A DNA stretch of 42,419 nt from Acidimicrobiales bacterium (GTDB lineage: Bacteria > Actinomycetota > Acidimicrobiia > Acidimicrobiales > RAAP-2), in contig DATCEZ010000161.1 of NCBI GenBank assembly GCA_036509775.1, positions 1 to 42,419 on the forward strand. Direction: 5' to 3'. Position numbers and translations under genes: made by a program. A model generated the notes under the pieces. The model was given only the letters and a program-made list of their open reading frames with translations, did not search any database and was not told the DNA's origin. Shown piece after piece: positions 21,388 to 42,023 of the stretch; within the stretch, counting starts at the first letter, position 1, and every line of letters starts with the position of its first letter.

Positions 21388-23100
21388 ATGACCACGTGGG
21401 ACACCACCGTCGACCTCGTGATCGTCGGATCGGGCGGCGGCGGCATGGTGGCTGCGTTGGCCGCTGACGACGCCGGAGCCAGTGCCCTCGTGCTCGAGAA
21501 GCAGGAGCTCATCGGGGGCTCGACCTGCATGTCCGGCGGCATCGCCTGGGTCCCGAACAACCCGGTCATGGCAGCGGACGGCGTCCGTGACTCCTACGAG
21601 GACGCCATGGCCCACTTCGAAGCTGTCGTGGGCGACGTGGGTCCCTGCTCCTCCTTCGAACGGCGCCACGCCTTCTTGACGGCGGGCCCCGAAATGGTCT
21701 CGTTCCTGCAGGACAGCGGCGTCCGGTTCGTCTACTGCCCCGGGTACAGCGACTACTACTCGAGCGCCAAGGGCGGTCACGACAACGGGCGCGGCATTGA
21801 GCCGATCCCCTACGACGGGCGGGTCCTCGGCGAGTGGCTGCCCAAGCTGCAGCAAGGGCTGGCCAAGAGCCTCGGCCTCGCGGTCATGACGAACGAGGCG
21901 CGGTCGCTCTCGCACTACAACCGCAGCCTGCGCGCCTTCGCGATCTCGGCCCGGGTGGTCATCAGGACCTACGCCGCCCGCCTGCGCCGGCAGGAACTGC
22001 TGACGAACGGCGCCTCGCTGATCGCGCAGCTGCTGCGGATCGCCGTCGACCGGGGGATCCCGATCTGGACCGACACCCCGCTGGAAGAGCTGATCGTCGA
22101 GGACGGCCGCGTCGTCGGCGTCCGCACCGTGCGCGACGGCGTCCCCGTGCTGGTGCGGGCCCGCCAAGGTGTGCTCCTGGCCGCCGGCGGCTTCGCTCAC
22201 AACCGCGACATGCGCGTCGAGTTCGGAGGCGATCAGCCCAACCAGGCCAAGTGGTCGATCTCCAACCCGGGCGACACCGGGGACGCCATCCGGAGCGCCA
22301 TGGCCATCGGCGCCCAGACCGATCTGATGGACGAGGCCTGGTGGCTCCCGTCCCCCCGGACGGGACGCTTCGGGCAATCGACGCTCGACCAGGCCCGCCA
22401 GCGGCCGCGCACCATGTACGTCGACGCCGCAGGCAAGCGGTTCGTGAACGAGTCCAACTCCTACATGGAAGTCGGCAAGGCGATGTACGCCCGGGACAAG
22501 ACGAGCAAGGCGGTCCCGTGCTGGCTGGTCTTCGACGACCGCTACCGGAAGCGCTACGCGCACCAGCGCTCCTCGCCGGGACGGTTCCCACGCAAGCTGC
22601 TCAAGAGCGGCATGCTCAAGCAGGCCTGGACGCTGAAGGACCTCGCCGTCATGTGCGGGATCGATCCCACCGGCCTGACCGAGACCGTCGAGCGCTTCAA
22701 CGAGAACGCCGAGCGGGGCATCGACCCCGACTACGGGCGGGGTGAGTCCGCCTACAACCGGGCGCTGGGTGACCCGAACCACAAGGTCCACCCCTGCCTC
22801 GGGCCCATTGACGAGGCCCCGTTCTACGCCTGCCAGGTCGTGCCCGGTGACATCGGCACCTGTGGCGGCCTCCTGACTGACGAGGACGCGCGGGTCGTCG
22901 ACCAGGGCGGTCGGGTGATCGACGGGCTCTACGCCACCGGCAACGGCACCGCCACCGTCATGGGCCGCCACTACCTCGGTCCGGGGGCGAGCATCGCCAA
23001 CACCATGGTCTTCGGCTACGTGGCCGCCCGGCACGCCGCCCGGACCGAGGCCCGGACCGAGGCGCGGACCGAGGCGCGGACCGAGGCTCCCGCCTCGTGA
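21388..23100 (+). CDS. FAD-dependent oxidoreductase, 3-ketosteroid-delta1-dehydrogenase/fumarate-reductase flavoprotein-like
   Basis: ATG 21388 follows GGAGGTCGGGGAGGG. The dinucleotide fold is DLVIVGSGGGGMVAALAADDAGASALVLEK..IGGST, and the C-terminal motif is GLYATGN. The tail carries (ARTE)x4. Confidence 0.9.
   Translation: MTTWDTTVDLVIVGSGGGGMVAALAADDAGASALVLEKQELIGGSTCMSGGIAWVPNNPVMAADGVRDSYEDAMAHFEAVVGDVGPCSSFERRHAFLTAGPEMVSFLQDSGVRFVYCPGYSDYYSSAKGGHDNGRGIEPIPYDGRVLGEWLPKLQQGLAKSLGLAVMTNEARSLSHYNRSLRAFAISARVVIRTYAARLRRQELLTNGASLIAQLLRIAVDRGIPIWTDTPLEELIVEDGRVVGVRTVRDGVPVLVRARQGVLLAAGGFAHNRDMRVEFGGDQPNQAKWSISNPGDTGDAIRSAMAIGAQTDLMDEAWWLPSPRTGRFGQSTLDQARQRPRTMYVDAAGKRFVNESNSYMEVGKAMYARDKTSKAVPCWLVFDDRYRKRYAHQRSSPGRFPRKLLKSGMLKQAWTLKDLAVMCGIDPTGLTETVERFNENAERGIDPDYGRGESAYNRALGDPNHKVHPCLGPIDEAPFYACQVVPGDIGTCGGLLTDEDARVVDQGGRVIDGLYATGNGTATVMGRHYLGPGASIANTMVFGYVAARHAARTEARTEARTEARTEAPAS
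23038..23085 (+). repeat. in-frame tandem repeat 4 x 12 bp (GCSCGGACCGAG) encoding ARTE-ARTE-ARTE-ARTE
   Basis: Units start at 23038, 23050, 23062 and 23074 and differ only at the third base of the Ala codon. The repeat lies 15 nt before the stop of the flavoprotein gene. Confidence 0.9.
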
Positions 23101-35987: not shown

Positions 35988-37511
35988 ATGGTGCAGAGCC
36001 TTCGAGCGCGATTGAACATCCTGATCGTCGTCCTGACCGTGGCGATCGTTGCGATCACGGCGTTCTCGACAGCGGCGTTCCTGAATCTGTCCGACGCCCG
36101 CCACCGCCTGCTGAACCAGATCGACCCGGCCAGTCTGAGCGCCGACCAGCTCCTGCTGGCGTACGTCGACGAGGAGACCGGCATCCGTGGCTACATCCTG
36201 GGGCGCAACTTCGCCTATTTGAGCCCCGCTATATCCGGGCTCAAAGAGCAGACGTCGGCCACCAAGCAATTGAACACCACTCTGGCCGATCAACCCGCAC
36301 TCTTGCGGTCCGCCAAGCGGGCCGAACACCTCGGGCAGATCTGGCAGACGAACTGGGCCCTCCCGGCTTTCAAGGCGACGGCTGCTGGCAACGCGACCTA
36401 CGCAACTCCAGAAGAGCTCGCCCAAGGCAAGACGCTGCTCGATCGTGTCCGGACGGCGTTCACGACACTGAACGACCAGCTGTCCGCGAGCCGTCAGCAG
36501 TACGGCGACAACGTGAATACAGCCACGAGGGAGCTGGTCATCGTCCTCCTGGTCGGACTCGTGCTCCTGGTGGGCGGCACCATTGCGGTGTCGGTCGCAT
36601 TGCGGAGGTGGGTGACCCGGCCGCTCGAGTCCGTGACACAGGATGCACGCCAGGTCACCTCGGGTGAGCTCGCCCATCCGATCAGCGTCACCGGGCCGTC
36701 GGAGATCCGCGCCCTTACCTCCGACATTGAGGCGATGCGTATTCGGATCGTTCAAGAGCTCGGCGAGGTGGAGTCGGCTCGAGCTGAGACTGCCGAGCGC
36801 AATATCGCGCTGGACAGGTCCAATCAGGAGCTCGAGCAGTTCGCCTACGTCGCCTCGCACGACCTCCAGGAGCCACTGCGCAAGGTCACCAGCTTCGTCC
36901 AGCTCCTCCAACAACGCTACGAGGGTCAGCTCGATGCGCGCGCCGACGAGTACATCGGCTTCGCCGTCGACGGCGCATCGAGGATGCAGCAGCTCATCAG
37001 CGACCTCCTGGCCTTCTCGAGGGTCGAGCGGTACGCCGACCGCTTCCAGCTGACGCCGTTGGCCGAGCCGATCACCGCGGCTTTGGACAACCTCGATATC
37101 GCACTGCGCGAGGTGGAGGCAACCGTCAACGTTGCACCCGACATGCCGCAGATCGTCGGCGACCCGGTTCTCCTGACCTCCCTGTGGCAGAACCTGATTG
37201 GCAACTCGGTCAAGTTCCGATCTGCGACGGCGCCGCTGATCGACATCGACGCGCGGCGAGAGGGCGATGCCTGGCTGCTCTCCATCAGTGACAACGGCAT
37301 CGGAATTGAACCCCGATTCGCCGACAAAGTGTTCGTGATCTTTCAGCGCCTGCACGGTCGGGATGCGTATCCGGGGACCGGCATCGGCCTCGCCCTCTGT
37401 AAGAAGATCGTCGAGTTCCACGGGGGCGAAATCTGGCTCGACACCGAGGTCTCAACCGGCACTCGGATTTGCTTTACTCTTCCGGTGGCACGGAGGGAGG
37501 TACGGACATGA
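35988..37511 (+). CDS. sensor histidine kinase, CHASE3-HAMP-HisKA-HATPase
   Basis: An N-terminal TM segment, a CHASE3-like segment (LLLAYVDEETGIRGYILG), a second TM segment and a HAMP domain. The H-box is FAYVASHDLQEPLRKV. The N, G1 and G2 boxes are NLIGNSVKF, DNGIGI and GTGIGLALCKKIVE. Confidence 0.92.
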   Translation: MVQSLRARLNILIVVLTVAIVAITAFSTAAFLNLSDARHRLLNQIDPASLSADQLLLAYVDEETGIRGYILGRNFAYLSPAISGLKEQTSATKQLNTTLADQPALLRSAKRAEHLGQIWQTNWALPAFKATAAGNATYATPEELAQGKTLLDRVRTAFTTLNDQLSASRQQYGDNVNTATRELVIVLLVGLVLLVGGTIAVSVALRRWVTRPLESVTQDARQVTSGELAHPISVTGPSEIRALTSDIEAMRIRIVQELGEVESARAETAERNIALDRSNQELEQFAYVASHDLQEPLRKVTSFVQLLQQRYEGQLDARADEYIGFAVDGASRMQQLISDLLAFSRVERYADRFQLTPLAEPITAALDNLDIALREVEATVNVAPDMPQIVGDPVLLTSLWQNLIGNSVKFRSATAPLIDIDARREGDAWLLSISDNGIGIEPRFADKVFVIFQRLHGRDAYPGTGIGLALCKKIVEFHGGEIWLDTEVSTGTRICFTLPVARREVRT

Positions 37512-37954
37512 TCCAAGCGGACCGGGAGTCGACCATTGTGTTGCTTCTCGTGGAGGATGACCCAGGGGACGTCACGATCACGCGGGAGGCGTTGAGCGAA
37601 GCGAAGGTGCTGCACGACCTTCACGTCGTCGACAACGGTGAGGCCGCCATCTCCTTCCTCCGGCAGGAGGCTCCCTATACCGACGCCCCTCGCCCTGACT
37701 TGATTTTTCTGGACCTCAATCTTCCCCGAATGGACGGTCGGGAAGTCCTTGCGATTGTGAAGAGCGATGAGTCGTTGCGGAGGATCCCGCTGGTTGTGCT
37801 CACGACCTCCGACTCCCAGGACGACATTGCGCGGAGCTACGACCTCCACGCCAATGCCTACGTCACCAAGCCGGTCGGGCTTGACTCCTTCCTGACGGCG
37901 GTGCAGCAGATCGACCATTTCTTTCTGACTGTGGCCAGCCTGCCCGAGCGGTAA
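37508..37954 (+). CDS. single-domain response regulator (CheY/Rcp1-like)
   Basis: The ATG overlaps the kinase stop (ATGA). Motifs are LLLVEDDPGD, DLIFLDLNLPRMDG, VVLTTS and ANAYVTKP. Confidence 0.92.
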   Translation: MIQADRESTIVLLLVEDDPGDVTITREALSEAKVLHDLHVVDNGEAAISFLRQEAPYTDAPRPDLIFLDLNLPRMDGREVLAIVKSDESLRRIPLVVLTTSDSQDDIARSYDLHANAYVTKPVGLDSFLTAVQQIDHFFLTVASLPER

Positions 37955-38520: not shown

Positions 38521-38731
38521 CGCCGTCGTTCGTCACTCGGCTCAGCCTCCGACGTCTCGCGACATCGACATTTTCTCCTGAGCGTTTACGGCCCAATAGA
38601 TCGGCTTCCTTCGCTCGACCCCCTCTCTCCCCGTCGTTCTCAAGGAACGCGTCGTGGACTCGGACCGGGATCTACGGGGAATGACTTCAGCCAAGGCGAC
38701 GACCTGACGATGAGATGGAGGCAGACTCTCT

Positions 38732-40744
38732 GTGCCCAACATCTCGAAGGGCCCGACGCGTGACGGTGTATATCTTCATCAGGCACATGTGACCACCCAT
38801 GTGACCAGCCACGTGCCTGGCCTGGATGCAGCCCGGCCGATTCTCGACGCCTTAGCCCAGCCGGTCGTCGTCACCGACCTCAAGGCCACGATTCTCTACT
38901 GGAATCAAGCCGCGACCGACCTCTATGGCTTTCGCGCCGACGAAGCACTGGGTCATTGCCTCTCTGCGCTACTCGAGAGTCCACCCTTTGTGGCCGGCGA
39001 CGAATCAATGGACACGCTCACCGGCCATAGCTACGCATCGACCCGTCAACTTCAAGGTCGCTCTCGTTCGGGAAGAGCACTCACAGTGCTGATGACGATG
39101 ACGCCTCTGGGTCTGGAAAATGGAGACCCGATCGCACTCATCGGTACAGCGGTGGACGTCACAACCGCGGCAAATGACCACAGTGGGTTGAAAGAGGCGA
39201 TGGACCTCGTCGAGGAAAAGTCCGCACGGATTGAAGTGGAGGCCGAACTCGCCCGCGTCAGCGGCGAAGCTGAGCGCTTACGCCTTGACGCCGAGGCTGA
39301 CCGCATCACGGCGGAGAGCGAGAAGAAAGAGGCCGAACGTGTTCGCCTTGACGCCGAGGCTGATCGCCTGACCGCCGAGAAAGAGAAGAGAGAGGCCGAA
39401 CGGGTCCGCCTCCACGCCGAGGCTGACCGCATCACGGCTGAGAGGGAGAAGAAAGAAGCCGAGCGTGTTCGCCTTGAAGCCGAGGCTGACCGCTTCACAG
39501 CCGAGGAGGAAAAGAGGGTCGCCGAGGGATTGCTGCTTGAAGACGCAGCGCACCGCGAGCAACTCGAGGCTCAGCTTCATCAATCACAGCGCTTGGAGAG
39601 CCTCGGGCAACTTGCGGGTGGGATTGCACACGACTTCAACAACCTCTTGGCCGTCATTTTGAACTATGCATCGTTCGTTGCTGAGGAGCTGTCCGCCGCG
39701 ACAGCCAATGATTCTGCGGTGCAATGGGAGGAGCCACTCAAGGACGTCAGGCAAATCCAACTGGCGGCGGAGCGTGCCAGCCTGCTTACCCACCAACTCC
39801 TTTCGTTCGCCCGGAGAGAGATCGTTCAGGCCCGTGCACTGAGTCTCAACAGCGCCATCACCCGGATGGAGCAGATACTGCGTCGCACGATCGGCGAGCA
39901 GATCGAGCTCGTCATCACTCTTGCGCCGAGCCTGCCAATGATCCTCGCAGACCCAGGTCAGATTGAGCAGATCGTTCTCAATCTGGCCATCAATGCTCGA
40001 GACGCAATGCCCTCCGGAGGGACTCTGTCCATCGACACTGCGGTGATTGAGACCCTAGAAAGCGAGACCGTAGTCACTGGAGTGCCGCCAGGGCTCTACG
40101 TCCGCTTTCGCGTGAGTGATACAGGAATCGGCATGTCCGCGGAAGTCCGCGATCGAGCATTCGAACCGTTTTACACAACCAAGCCCAGAGGCGAGGGATC
40201 CGGTCTTGGATTGGCGACGGTCTATGGAATTGTGCTGCAGTCCGACGGTTATTCACGGATCTATTCCGACGAGGGTGTCGGGACCTCAATATCCATCCTG
40301 TTGCCTGTCTCAGAAGACGAGACCATGGGTGACCCTCGCGATGGACCCTTGAATCCCAAGCTCCCTCTCGGAACTGAAACGATCCTCGTCGTTGATGACG
40401 AGGAGGCGCTCCGTGAAGTCACGGGACGAATGCTCACTCGCAGCGGCTACACGGTCCTTACTGCCTCGAGCGGCGCTCAGGCGATAGAACTCGCTGCGAG
40501 CCATGTTGGGCCAATCGATCTCGTACTCACCGACGTGATTATGCCGAAGATGCAGGGGCCAACTGTCGCAAAAGAAGTGCGAAAGGTGAGGTCAGGCATC
40601 CGAGTCTTGTTCATGTCTGGTCACGCTCAACCAGTACTACAGGCAGAAGATGTTCTCGGAACGGACTTTCTAATGCTTGAGAAGCCCTTCGACCAGGCGA
40701 TCCTTCTTGAGAGCGTACGTACCGTGCTCGATCGTCATGAGTGA
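38732..40744 (+). CDS. hybrid sensor histidine kinase: PAS - long charged helical repeat - HisKA - HATPase - REC
   Basis: The PAS domain is ILDALAQPVVVTDLKATILYWNQAATDLYGF. The H-box is GGIAHDFNNLL, and the N and G boxes are NLAINARDAM, DTGIGM and GSGLGLATV. The C-terminal REC has ILVVDDEE and DLVLTDVIMPKMQG. The start is uncertain (GTG 38732 to GTG 38813). Confidence 0.9.
   Translation: MPNISKGPTRDGVYLHQAHVTTHVTSHVPGLDAARPILDALAQPVVVTDLKATILYWNQAATDLYGFRADEALGHCLSALLESPPFVAGDESMDTLTGHSYASTRQLQGRSRSGRALTVLMTMTPLGLENGDPIALIGTAVDVTTAANDHSGLKEAMDLVEEKSARIEVEAELARVSGEAERLRLDAEADRITAESEKKEAERVRLDAEADRLTAEKEKREAERVRLHAEADRITAEREKKEAERVRLEAEADRFTAEEEKRVAEGLLLEDAAHREQLEAQLHQSQRLESLGQLAGGIAHDFNNLLAVILNYASFVAEELSAATANDSAVQWEEPLKDVRQIQLAAERASLLTHQLLSFARREIVQARALSLNSAITRMEQILRRTIGEQIELVITLAPSLPMILADPGQIEQIVLNLAINARDAMPSGGTLSIDTAVIETLESETVVTGVPPGLYVRFRVSDTGIGMSAEVRDRAFEPFYTTKPRGEGSGLGLATVYGIVLQSDGYSRIYSDEGVGTSISILLPVSEDETMGDPRDGPLNPKLPLGTETILVVDDEEALREVTGRMLTRSGYTVLTASSGAQAIELAASHVGPIDLVLTDVIMPKMQGPTVAKEVRKVRSGIRVLFMSGHAQPVLQAEDVLGTDFLMLEKPFDQAILLESVRTVLDRHE
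39266..39517 (+). repeat. in-frame tandem repeat, 4 x 63 bp (21 aa: EAERVRLDAEADRITAExEKK)
   Basis: Units start at 39266, 39329, 39392 and 39455. The peptides are EAERLRLDAEADRITAESEKK, EAERVRLDAEADRLTAEKEKR, EAERVRLHAEADRITAEREKK and EAERVRLEAEADRFTAEEEKR. Unit 1 resembles unit 3 and unit 2 resembles unit 4, which implies a 126-bp duplication of a 2-unit block. Confidence 0.95.
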
Positions 40745-42023
40745 GAAACCAGTTGTTCGCGTCGTGCTCATCGACGACCATGAGATGATTCTTCAGAGCA
40801 TGGTCCGCTTGCTCCGTGATGATCCGCAGATCGCCGTGGTCGGCACGGCTCTCACTGCTGAACAGGGTATCGGCGTCACCCAGCAAGAGCGGCCCGATAT
40901 CGTCATCGTCGATTACAAATTGACGGACATGGACGCTCCTGAAGCGATCAGGATTCTCCAGACGGTCCATCCTGAGGTCAAGGTCATTACATTGTCTGGC
41001 GCTGAACAACCTGGCGCTCTCTATGCCTCAATACGAGCTGGCAGTTCGGGATGGGTCAACAAGACCCGAGCAATCCAGGAACTCCGAGACGCTGTGCTCA
41101 ACGTGGCCGCCGGTCGGCCGGTCCCGAGTGAAGAGATTGAGTCACTTCCGTCACTCGATCAGCTTGTCCTGCACTATCAACCAATAGTGGACCTCGAGAA
41201 TGGGCACATCATCGGCTTCGAGGCTCTGGTTCGCTGGCAACACCCAGAAAGAGGCCTCCTCCACCCCATCGAGTTCGTGCCGCTCGCGCACAAGACGGGC
41301 TTTATCGTCGAGATCGACTGCTGGGTGTGGGAACACGCTGTGCAACAACTGCGGGCGTGGCAGCGACGATTCCCCTCGAGCCCGCGCCTCTTCATGAGTG
41401 TCAACATGTCGGTGACTGACCTCTCGGATCCCGGTCTCTTCGAAACGATCTCAGGGATAGTCAGAGAAGCCGGGATTGATCCGGTCGACCTCGTCATTGA
41501 GATCACCGAATCTGTCCTTCTCGACGATACCGAACAAACAATCCAATTCCTTGGGCAACTCAAAGATCTGGGTGTAGGACTGGCACTCGACGACTTCGGA
41601 ACTGCCTTCTCATCTCTCTCGTACGTCCGCCGTTTCCCGTTCGATCGTTTGAAGCTGGACATTTCATTCACCTCGGAACTCCCTCAATCGACTCGCTCAA
41701 TGTTGCTGGTCGAAGAGATCTGCCACCTGGCTACATCGATGGGGATGAAAAGCATTGCCGAAGGCATCGAGCGACAAGAGCAAGCCGACGCACTTCGAGA
41801 TATCGGATGCTTTTGCGGGCAGGGCTACCTCTATTCGCGCCCGCTGTCAGCAAGCGGCTGCAACGGGCTCCTGAAGGCTCGTTACGCGTCTCTCTCCGAT
41901 AAAGATCGTGCAGCGCTGAGCGCCGAGCAGGCCTCGCCACAGTCAAGACGTGCCGCCGCCAAATCAGCTCTTGCGGCGAACCGTGCAAAGCACACACCCG
42001 CACCGTCACCAATTCACAAATAG
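40737..42023 (+). CDS. response regulator with EAL c-di-GMP phosphodiesterase output (REC-EAL)
   Basis: ATG 40737 overlaps the hybrid kinase gene by 8 nt. The REC motifs are VVLIDDHE, IVIVDYKLTDMD and VITLSG. The EAL domain has FEALVRW, NMS, EITE, LALDDFGTAFSSL, KLD, AEGIE and GQGYLYSRP, so the catalytic residues look intact. Confidence 0.92.
   Translation: MSEKPVVRVVLIDDHEMILQSMVRLLRDDPQIAVVGTALTAEQGIGVTQQERPDIVIVDYKLTDMDAPEAIRILQTVHPEVKVITLSGAEQPGALYASIRAGSSGWVNKTRAIQELRDAVLNVAAGRPVPSEEIESLPSLDQLVLHYQPIVDLENGHIIGFEALVRWQHPERGLLHPIEFVPLAHKTGFIVEIDCWVWEHAVQQLRAWQRRFPSSPRLFMSVNMSVTDLSDPGLFETISGIVREAGIDPVDLVIEITESVLLDDTEQTIQFLGQLKDLGVGLALDDFGTAFSSLSYVRRFPFDRLKLDISFTSELPQSTRSMLLVEEICHLATSMGMKSIAEGIERQEQADALRDIGCFCGQGYLYSRPLSASGCNGLLKARYASLSDKDRAALSAEQASPQSRRAAAKSALAANRAKHTPAPSPIHK

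Follow-up and report, generated by a model that had tools for sequence, protein, structure and literature searches.

In two-component signaling, the question over what distance and by which movement a helical linker transmits a signal between sensor and kinase has so far been probed mostly through few-residue engineering in YF1-type chimeras. The locus described here raises this question in a natural protein. In a 42,419-nt stretch of Acidimicrobiales DNA (contig DATCEZ010000161.1, the whole of which is called the window below), the gene for a soluble hybrid histidine kinase carries four tandem 63-bp units at 39266-39517, between its PAS sensor domain and its kinase core. Coordinates and amino acid numbers refer to this kinase unless another protein is named. 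We propose that the four units are part of a family-wide, variable-number array of a 21-residue repeat that lengthens the helix running from PAS to the DHp domain of a soluble CckA-like kinase, a reading to which we assign a probability of about 0.55.

The position of the four units, as given by the initial annotation of the DNA, was borne out by tandem repeat detection (Tandem Repeats Finder, TRF), by the reading frame, and by the Pfam domain positions. TRF reported a period of 63 nt with 3.6 copies, 81% matches, and a score of 317 at 39281-39505, and a period of 126 nt with a score of 374 at 39281-39516; elsewhere in the 42 kb of the window, array scores did not exceed 86. The units start at 39266, 39329, 39392, and 39455, all in frame 0 of the open reading frame (ORF) 38732-40744 (+), and translate in order to EAERLRLDAEADRITAESEKK, EAERVRLDAEADRLTAEKEKR, EAERVRLHAEADRITAEREKK, and EAERVRLEAEADRFTAEEEKR. 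Any two of them share 48-53 of 63 nucleotides and 16-18 of 21 amino acids, with five to eight synonymous codon differences per pair. At 76-84% pairwise identity, they are not the nearly identical DNA copies of the first description. The suggested duplication of a two-unit, 126-bp block turned out to be marginal: units 1 and 3 share 53 nucleotides and units 2 and 4 share 52, compared with 48-51 for the remaining pairs, and a lag of 126 gave 105 of 126 matches (83%) versus about 78% at a lag of 63. Nor does the array stop at 39517, where its end had been placed. A degenerate fifth unit, identical to the others at 28-33 of 63 nucleotides and 6-7 of 21 residues, continues over 39518-39580 and merges the array into the DHp helix; in a PDB sequence search it aligned with YF1 (4gcz) and LvrB (8vc9) over their linker/DHp helix. 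The 63 bp upstream of the array are at chance level (13-16 of 63 nucleotides). Two antisense ORFs over the array, 39052-39498 and 39278-39583 (-), were rejected as repeat-generated, GC-rich, and unsupported.

To place these units in their family, we searched for homologs with the whole window protein and examined the best 120 matches (E up to 1e-202). At least 120 Acidimicrobiales homologs, essentially all of the best 120, carry the same repeat between PAS and the AHDFNN motif. Metagenomes of peat, soil, and permafrost account for most of them, and the taxonomy follows the NCBI names, which are those of seven metagenome-assembled genomes of Acidimicrobiales and one, probably mis-binned, 'Planctomycetaceae'. 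The array was kept in all of the family members examined (at least 105), and no zero-copy member was present among the top 120. Comparison of repeat numbers across these homologs gave 1 to about 20 copies of the same unit per protein, the longest proteins having 963 (P0029), 890 (P0041), and 871 residues (P0034). Homolog lengths step by 21 residues, as in the series 668/647/626, 705/684/663, and 614/593/572/551. A homolog search with the linker only, a low-complexity query that was filtered, returned 12 matches, all of them truncated PAS-plus-repeat ORFs. The 21-residue array was absent among the matches listed from a pattern scan of contigs (AGGVAHDF, ADPGQIEQ), which were only distant relatives with 33-53% identity.

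The family unit is AERVRLEAEADRVKAEGEKTE, composed of three AExxRxx heptads. A profile built from 308 unique units, numbered from the Ala start, resolved it into the related heptads AERVRLE, AEADRVK, and AEGEKTx. Positions 1-9 read, in percent, A100 E98 R65 V92 R99 L94 E78 A87 E92, and positions 10-21 read A70/V23 (D/Q/E) R79/L19 V63/I29 (K/T) A99 E88 G62 E97 K100 (T/K/A) V44/E38. Thus R5, K19, E2, and E18 are fixed at 97-100% with no exchange between Lys and Arg, and the three Ala columns (100, 87, and 99%) never hold Glu, Lys, or Gln. Successive unit starts lie 21 residues apart in 500 cases, 14 in 41, and 7 in 24; another 76 cases are of the form 7n+2 (9 or 23 residues), many of which the first unit seems to carry as a constant trait. 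The Gly at unit position 17, present in 62% of the family units, is replaced by Ser, Lys, Arg, and Glu in window units 1-4 (codons 39317-39319, 39380-39382, 39443-39445, and 39506-39508), and its codon varies more than any other in the unit.

Linker length was then counted in residues from the final position of the D(V/I)T or RDxT motif that closes PAS up to the phospho-accepting His. This distance ranges from 66 to 453 residues across the family. In the group of proteins resembling that of the window, it is 114, 135, 156, or 170 residues and congruent to 2 mod 7 in 29 of 29 proteins. In a second group, where the helix begins right at the motif, it runs from 66 to 453 residues, and 67 of 76 proteins are congruent to 3 mod 7. 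The window-like group carries an extra 20 residues (TAANDHSGLKEAMDLVEEKS) ahead of the common ARIEVEAE start, and the distance counted from Ser164 is 136, i.e. 3 mod 7, matching the second group. Because the copy-number steps are 7, 14, and 21 residues, the helical phase relative to the His is kept while the length varies. Together with the values of 27, 34, and 43 in relatives lacking the repeat, these counts describe discrete linker lengths with a seven-residue period, the accepted hallmark of sensor-kinase linkers that form coiled coils (PMC6798134). The initial annotation had argued that units of three heptads preserve the register between PAS and the DHp helix. At the level of the family, the sequences examined support this heptad-register idea, in that the phase is kept; the coupling of PAS to DHp in the window protein itself is less secure, given the DH.G hinge discussed below.

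Copy number also differs between close relatives. Taking the kinase core as the stretch from the H-box to the C terminus and requiring 100% identity over it, we found linkers 21 residues apart (P0087 versus P0106-8; P0045/P0061; P0039/P0053; P0014/P0015) and 14 residues apart (P0064 and P0067 versus P0088), and one series with linkers of 164, 227, 248, and 346 residues (P0059-63, P0037, P0034/38, and P0026), whose differences amount to 63-182 residues. The array is, as had been anticipated, prone to change in copy number. In two members of a more distant branch, L004 and L006, the flanks are 99.8% and 98.8% identical and the linkers differ by 182 residues (546 bp, 26 heptads). L006 retains the first three units of L004 and resumes at the thirteenth; the junction falls in the segment VAERVRLEVEAVRVTAEGEKEEAE, which is present three times in the long allele, as would be expected from unequal homologous recombination. 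The long form of 827 residues occurs on eight contigs, the two shown being from two separate Joint Genome Institute (JGI) samples. In P0033 (468 residues, on a 468-kb contig), in P0050 with P0126 (both on one 95,405-bp contig), and in P0103, the gene is split within the repeat array, and the N terminus of P0033 is an alternative reading frame of the repeat (FALKLRLTASRL...). Such splits could reflect either frameshift errors in the repeats or real pseudogenization.

The likely source of the unit emerged from relatives with short linkers. The kinase core (residues 265-670) served as query against 1.84 billion cluster representatives, and the best 150 matches were examined. The array was present in only two or three of these core matches (P0133, P0238, and partly P0197). 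In the remaining ones the linker is short and free of repeats, D(V/I)T and His lying 27 residues apart in 43 representatives, 34 in 26, and 43 in 24; these linkers read ...ERLEIQAERERLRAQAERERLEAQLHQSQRLESLG... and already have AExxRxx heptads within them. The base length of the repeat family is 45 (43 plus 2) plus 7n. Judged from the alignments, the array most likely arose by multiplication of a segment of the signaling helix native to this clade. A different tandem repeat stands directly upstream of the same DHp (RLESLGQLAGGVAH) in the related kinases P0156, P0157, P0165, and L009. Its unit has 18-19 residues, e.g. DTQRRDARYAQDQIDVDA, with 83% self-identity at lag 18 (L009, +1 frame, at about residues 800-907), and it looks like an independent second repeat-built region before this kinase core.

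An AlphaFold2 model of the monomer, computed from a 25-sequence alignment, predicted one unbroken helix over residues 160-325, running through the repeats (pLDDT 65-78) into DHp alpha-1. The units thus lie within a predicted helix that links PAS to DHp, in agreement with the helical linker first suggested. On the PAS side the model has a short helix at 144-150 and coil at 151-159, with pLDDT below 50 over 148-170. An alpha-helix rises by 0.15 nm per residue. At this value the 84 repeat residues extend over about 12.6 nm, close to the earlier estimate of roughly 12 nm if helical, and the whole predicted helix over about 25 nm.

We next gave each residue a heptad phase, counted from His300. Class 1 reads ...AAAAAAAAAAAAADL... 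and class 4 ...RRKRRKRRKRRKLRL... (RLAAAAAAAAAAAAADLSGA and KESRRKRRKRRKRRKLRLEG), that is, a column of Ala and a column of Arg/Lys, which run on into Leu268, Leu278, and Leu282 beside DHp. In 93 relatives lacking the repeat, classes 1 and 4 are A38/L25/S18 and R39/L29; because most of their Leu residues fall there, these two classes represent the canonical seam. An Ala seam drove dimerization of designed AE-type heptad peptides, and Arg-rich versions oligomerized (PMC5347031). Single registers that would bury all of the conserved hydrophobic residues were tried and rejected, as cores of Ala/Val-Asp-Glu, Arg-Ala-Gly/Leu-Val-Thr, and Arg-Lys/Ala each expose either Val4 or Leu6. An antiparallel hairpin turning at the family Gly17 was likewise discarded, since the window units have Ser, Lys, Arg, or Glu at that position and the AlphaFold2 helix is straight. 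From the sequence pattern, we favor the array as a weak, charged, two-stranded coiled coil with an Ala/Arg seam, its ends held by DHp and probably by PAS.

These observations can be assembled into the following proposal. The unit would have been multiplied from AExxRxx heptads of the clade's own signaling helix, and the array and DHp alpha-1 are predicted to form one continuous helix. In the kinase dimer, the array would most likely be a weak, highly charged, parallel two-stranded coiled coil, whose putative seam consists of the invariant Ala at every seventh residue and the Arg/Lys four residues later, flanked by Glu and in phase with the Leu seam beside DHp. Unequal recombination or slippage between units or heptads would shift the copy number in steps of 7, 14, and 21 residues. 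Each step would add exactly two turns of coiled coil for every seven residues, so that the angular relation of the N-terminal part to the DHp seam is kept and the kinase could tolerate large changes in length. Length may tune the coupling, or else how stable and how dynamic a marginal coiled coil is, and hence the balance of kinase and phosphatase activity in a protein that is probably co-transcribed with a REC-EAL cyclic di-GMP (c-di-GMP) phosphodiesterase.

Several observations weigh against this proposal, and some of them suit a single alpha-helix (SAH) of the ER/K type instead. As a whole, the AlphaFold2 model is of low quality (pLDDT 56.9, pTM 0.28) and, being monomeric, is silent on the oligomeric state. 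By our own heuristics for hydrophobic moments and ion-pair counts, with SAH criteria following PMC5347031 and PMC5812594, the moment of the array at 102.9 degrees is 0.32, compared with 0.92 for tropomyosin and 1.38 for GCN4, and amphipathicity at 100 degrees is near zero (0.03-0.14). Charged residues make up 57-60% of the array and large hydrophobics only 14%. Favorable i+3/i+4 pairs number 0.48 per residue versus 0.27 in tropomyosin, and E2-R5-E9-R12-E16-K19 form a continuous i+3/i+4 ladder. From the profile and our own geometry, Val4 and Leu6 lie about 200 degrees apart, on opposite faces; no register buries both, and there is no Leu/Val seam. The D-H-x-G motif at 39176-39187 (residues 149-152), which is confined to the window-like subgroup and has H150 and G152 near-invariant in 25 homologs, belongs to the 20-residue insert of that subgroup, a stretch partly non-helical in the AlphaFold2 model. 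It is probably a non-helical element separating the long helix from PAS, and it may act as a hinge or cap that uncouples the two. Nine of the 76 proteins of the second group are out of phase, five sharing a 9-residue insert near DHp and four being singletons. Recombination between repeats by its nature yields steps of 7n residues, so that conservation of phase may be mutational and needs no selection, and some of the length differences among metagenomes could be assembly collapse where units are near-identical. Read as an SAH, each subunit would hold a stiff monomeric helix that keeps PAS 10-65 nm from the kinase core, with length setting reach or an entropic spring and with no rotational or register signal passing along it. 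The charge, the ion-pair ladder, the scattered hydrophobics, the hinge, and the extreme tolerance of length differences between strains all fit such a spacer, and SAHs are often taken for coiled coils (PMC5347031). A generic SAH, however, should tolerate swaps at R5, K19, E2, and E18 and in the Ala that recurs every seven residues, where none were seen. Both the Ala column and that of Arg/Lys, moreover, share the heptad phase of the canonical dimer seam found in the short-linker relatives, the charge content is below that of typical SAHs, designed heptads with an Ala seam or rich in Arg oligomerized (PMC5347031), and two helices leave the DHp dimer side by side, to be tied again if the PAS domains dimerize. 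We regard the SAH spacer as possible though doubtful.

The other explanations concern the origin and the use of the copies. Assemblies are notoriously prone to error at tandem repeats, and the 126-nt period scores slightly above that of 63, as an artefact or a private, very recent expansion might produce. The array is nevertheless spanned without gaps by Logan contigs from two independent peat metagenome runs, one of 4483 nt (X1) covering 38700-39592 with three mismatches and one of 637 nt (X2) covering 39176-39812 with eight, so that both assemblies reproduce four units. Because the longest exact repeat within the array is only 25 nt, below assembler word and read length, short reads resolve it unambiguously. 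The units have diverged by 16-24%, and their differences over the six unit pairs of the window fall 14/8/54 on codon positions 1/2/3 (54 of 76 at the third), with a third-position divergence of about 0.43 per site. In P0002, a 91% identical protein, unit 3 retains the His at the same position and unit 4 retains the Phe and the EEEKR ending; because P0002 holds recognizable units 3 and 4, the four-unit order predates its split from the window. Four units are also the commonest state in the window subgroup (16 of 27 proteins). Since the differences are mostly at third positions and amino acid changes are very few, the window units are old and under purifying selection, and the sequences indicate that the four copies are old selected duplicates and an inherited family trait. 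The recent expansion claimed by the initial annotation does not stand, given this codon pattern, the orthologous units of P0002, and the family-wide array, and we find an artefact or a private expansion scarcely credible. Rather less far-fetched is that the array is a neutral passenger, a recombination-prone repeat in a permissive linker whose copy number drifts and whose phase is a mutational by-product. Strains with identical kinase cores have 4 to about 13 units, the insertions and deletions are exactly those expected from recombination of units or sub-units, and the gene is split within the array in P0033 and in P0050 with P0126. We nonetheless hold this to be unlikely, as the unit, with many positions at 97-100%, is more conserved across the family than the kinase core (55-65% identical), substitutions in the window are overwhelmingly synonymous, and array retention was universal among the members examined. 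Lastly, each unit might bind a partner protein or ligand, for example REC-EAL, with copy number setting the stoichiometry of a multivalent scaffold. The invariant R5, K19, and E18, the exposed V4 and L6 that are unburied in any single coiled-coil register, and the conserved operon partner would suit such a scaffold. Against it, no known binding motif was recognized, Pfam has no model for the repeat in long family members and gave only sub-threshold low-complexity matches (Ig_TPPC8_2nd, DUF874, DUF2513), only the DHp-proximal 40 residues of the linker matched in a PDB sequence search whereas the repeats matched nothing, and the c-di-GMP-binding motifs RxxD, RxxxR, and RsiG-type were not seen in an informal look by eye. 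We judge it very improbable.

Returning to the helical array as a family trait, the window locus represents a single allele of a helical linker that is common to the family, hypervariable in length, and preserved in phase. The family offers a natural series with the same sensor, the same kinase, and linkers from about 45 to more than 450 residues in seven-residue steps. Near-isogenic strain pairs that differ in copy number alone make regulation at extreme length and the importance of phase testable, and the series also allows the charged Ala/Arg seam to be tested as a coiled coil or a single helix. A more ambitious version, in which the array is an evolvable rheostat whose strain-level copy number heritably tunes the Ala/Arg-seam coiled coil, the kinase/phosphatase balance, and the signal gain to the c-di-GMP phosphodiesterase, seems to us decidedly a long shot; in this version, if PAS still regulates the long forms, a conformational signal would travel along 30-65 nm of two-stranded helix. 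If copy number is neutral, the locus would be a tidy example of a repeat-tolerant linker, of limited consequence. In either case, the unit offers protein engineers an off-the-shelf helical extender that is soluble and neutral in phase. A comparable repeat-based or variable-length kinase linker was not found in the full-text literature, of which coverage was incomplete. As far as our searches show, this would be an unreported tandem-repeat length polymorphism within a cytoplasmic bacterial signaling protein, a phenomenon otherwise known from surface proteins.

The features of the kinase gene and its downstream neighbor are collected in Table 1.

Table 1. Kinase gene, its domains and linker segments, and the adjoining response regulator gene in the window
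Feature	Coordinates	Strand	Details and basis
Soluble hybrid histidine kinase gene	38732..40744	+	670 aa (amino acids) from GTG 38732; ORF list and Pfam
PAS sensor domain	38843..39169	+	aa 38-146, C-terminal D142-V-T144 motif; Pfam PAS_4 1.8e-11, PAS 1.9e-09, PAS_9
PAS-proximal linker	39170..39265	+	aa 147-178, DH.G hinge followed by start of long helix ARIEVEAELARVSG; homologs, AlphaFold2
Four tandem 63-bp units	39266..39517	+	21 aa each, aa 179-262; TRF, frame, identity matrix
Degenerate fifth unit	39518..39580	+	aa 263-283, VAEGLLLEDAAHREQLEAQLH; identity to units, PDB alignment
HisKA/DHp domain	39602..39820	+	aa 291-363; Pfam HisKA 2.4e-05, PDB H-box matches
HATPase_c catalytic domain	39950..40312	+	aa 407-527; Pfam 1.5e-18, above cut-off
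C-terminal receiver domain (REC)	40382..40717	+	aa 551-662; Pfam Response_reg 4e-20, above cut-off
REC-EAL c-di-GMP phosphodiesterase-type response regulator gene	40737..42023	+	Pfam EAL 6.3e-73, Response_reg 4.1e-17

The protein combines an H-box His in DHp, HATPase_c, and a C-terminal REC, and it is a hybrid kinase because of this receiver domain. The phospho-accepting His300 is encoded by the CAC codon at 39629-39631, within AHDFNN. Although the HisKA match, at 24.7 bits, is slightly under the Pfam cut-off of 26.9 bits, the H-box aligned with those of CckA (5idj) and LvrB (8vc9) in the PDB sequence search. Pfam found only domains of soluble kinases, and the AlphaFold2 model has no obvious membrane-spanning helix. 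The best NCBIfam matches were PRK13557 and CckA-type models, all under their own cut-offs. The PAS domain, which is of a generic kind, gave weak PDB sequence matches to those of DosP and BvgS. The kinase may start at GTG 38801, since 647-residue orthologs begin 23 codons further on. A 12-bp tandem repeat (CATGTGACCACC, 2.5 copies, TRF) at 38786-38815 lies in the first 30 kinase codons and encodes HVTTHVTSHV; it may sit in the leader if GTG 38801 is the start. The second-best tandem array of the window, at 23038-23087, has a 12-bp unit as well (GCCCGGACCGAG, 4.2 copies, 97% identity, TRF score 86). A permafrost metatranscriptome run holds contigs on the kinase gene, including 39416-39568, which fits transcription of the window gene or of a close ortholog; DNA carry-over is possible.

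The kinase stop overlaps the ATG of the REC-EAL gene by 8 nt (40737-40744, ATGAGTGA), which suggests translational coupling. REC-EAL gave PvrR- and DibA-like NCBIfam matches below cut-off. The same pair of kinase and REC-EAL recurs in the distant family branch L004-L006 with a 4-nt overlap (L004 5540-5543), and a PAS-GGDEF-EAL-REC gene adjoins the kinase of family member P0107. From gene order, REC-EAL is the probable phosphotransfer partner of the kinase, and the family most likely passes phosphoryl groups to response regulators that degrade c-di-GMP. Directly upstream in the window lies a second two-component module, with a CHASE3-HAMP-HisKA-HATPase kinase at 35988-37511 and a stand-alone REC gene at 37508-37954, overlapping by 4 nt. 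In L006 (1-2402), a hybrid kinase with CHASE3 likewise has a REC-EAL gene of its own close by. The CHASE3 modules of the window and of L006 look like paralogous kinase-to-c-di-GMP modules.

Finally, we compared the kinase and its array with known systems. Poly-HAMP arrays, as in Aer2 and the fungal group III hybrid kinases, also place repeated helical modules between sensor and kinase or output. The HAMP unit is a four-helix-bundle domain of about 50 residues with a copy number fixed per ortholog; Pfam detected no HAMP in the window kinase. Among CckA-type hybrid kinases, the likeness lies in the core, where AHDFNN, HATPase_c, and the C-terminal REC score best against CckA models and the H-box matches 5idj, and some family members are named CckA by JGI. 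The scores of 302-354 bits are, however, far under the equivalog cut-off of 1000, and the window kinase differs from CckA in lacking a transmembrane region and in its N terminus, its actinobacterial host, and its REC-EAL partner.

With the SAHs of myosin-6/10 and the designed AEEEKKK peptides, the array shares a composition rich in Glu, Arg, Lys, and Ala, dense i+3/i+4 pairs of opposite charge as used to recognize SAH domains, AE-initial heptad repeats, and a predicted long lone helix that spaces two functional modules (PMC5347031, PMC5812594). It differs in being less charged, in its invariant Ala seam and conserved Val/Leu, and in belonging to an obligate dimer, where it passes without a break into a four-helix bundle. 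The S-helix was defined by Anantharaman, Balaji and Aravind (2006) as about 40 residues, or five heptads, with a conserved ERT in the central heptad (PMC1592074). Both are helical connectors right upstream of the DHp/kinase output with polar residues at the interface. The family linker, in contrast, has no fixed length, at 66-453 versus about 40 residues, and falls outside the S-helix definition, as the ERT tripeptide is absent from the window linker and the family profile, where ERV/ERL and DRI/DRV are present. Periscope proteins likewise vary in length between strains through gain and loss of tandem repeats, which changes the distance between functional ends (PMC8201768). Those are cell-surface stalks whose folded domains each span tens to hundreds of residues, whereas the present family is a cytoplasmic signaling enzyme with a 21-residue helical unit, in which no surface-protein domain was found.

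The closest parallels are the coiled-coil linkers of PAS and LOV kinases such as FixL and the engineered YF1, in which a helix runs from the D(I/V)T motif of PAS into DHp alpha-1, a course that the helix of this family may share. YF1 (4gcz) aligns with the DHp-proximal part of the window linker, and discrete lengths with a seven-residue period are common to both (PMC6798134). Unlike those linkers, which are non-repetitive and a few tens of residues long, the linkers of this family reach 66-453 residues, up to ten times longer, and their seam has Ala and Arg/Lys in place of Leu/Ile, charged residues amounting to about 60%. They are built of 21-residue repeats and are polymorphic between strains.

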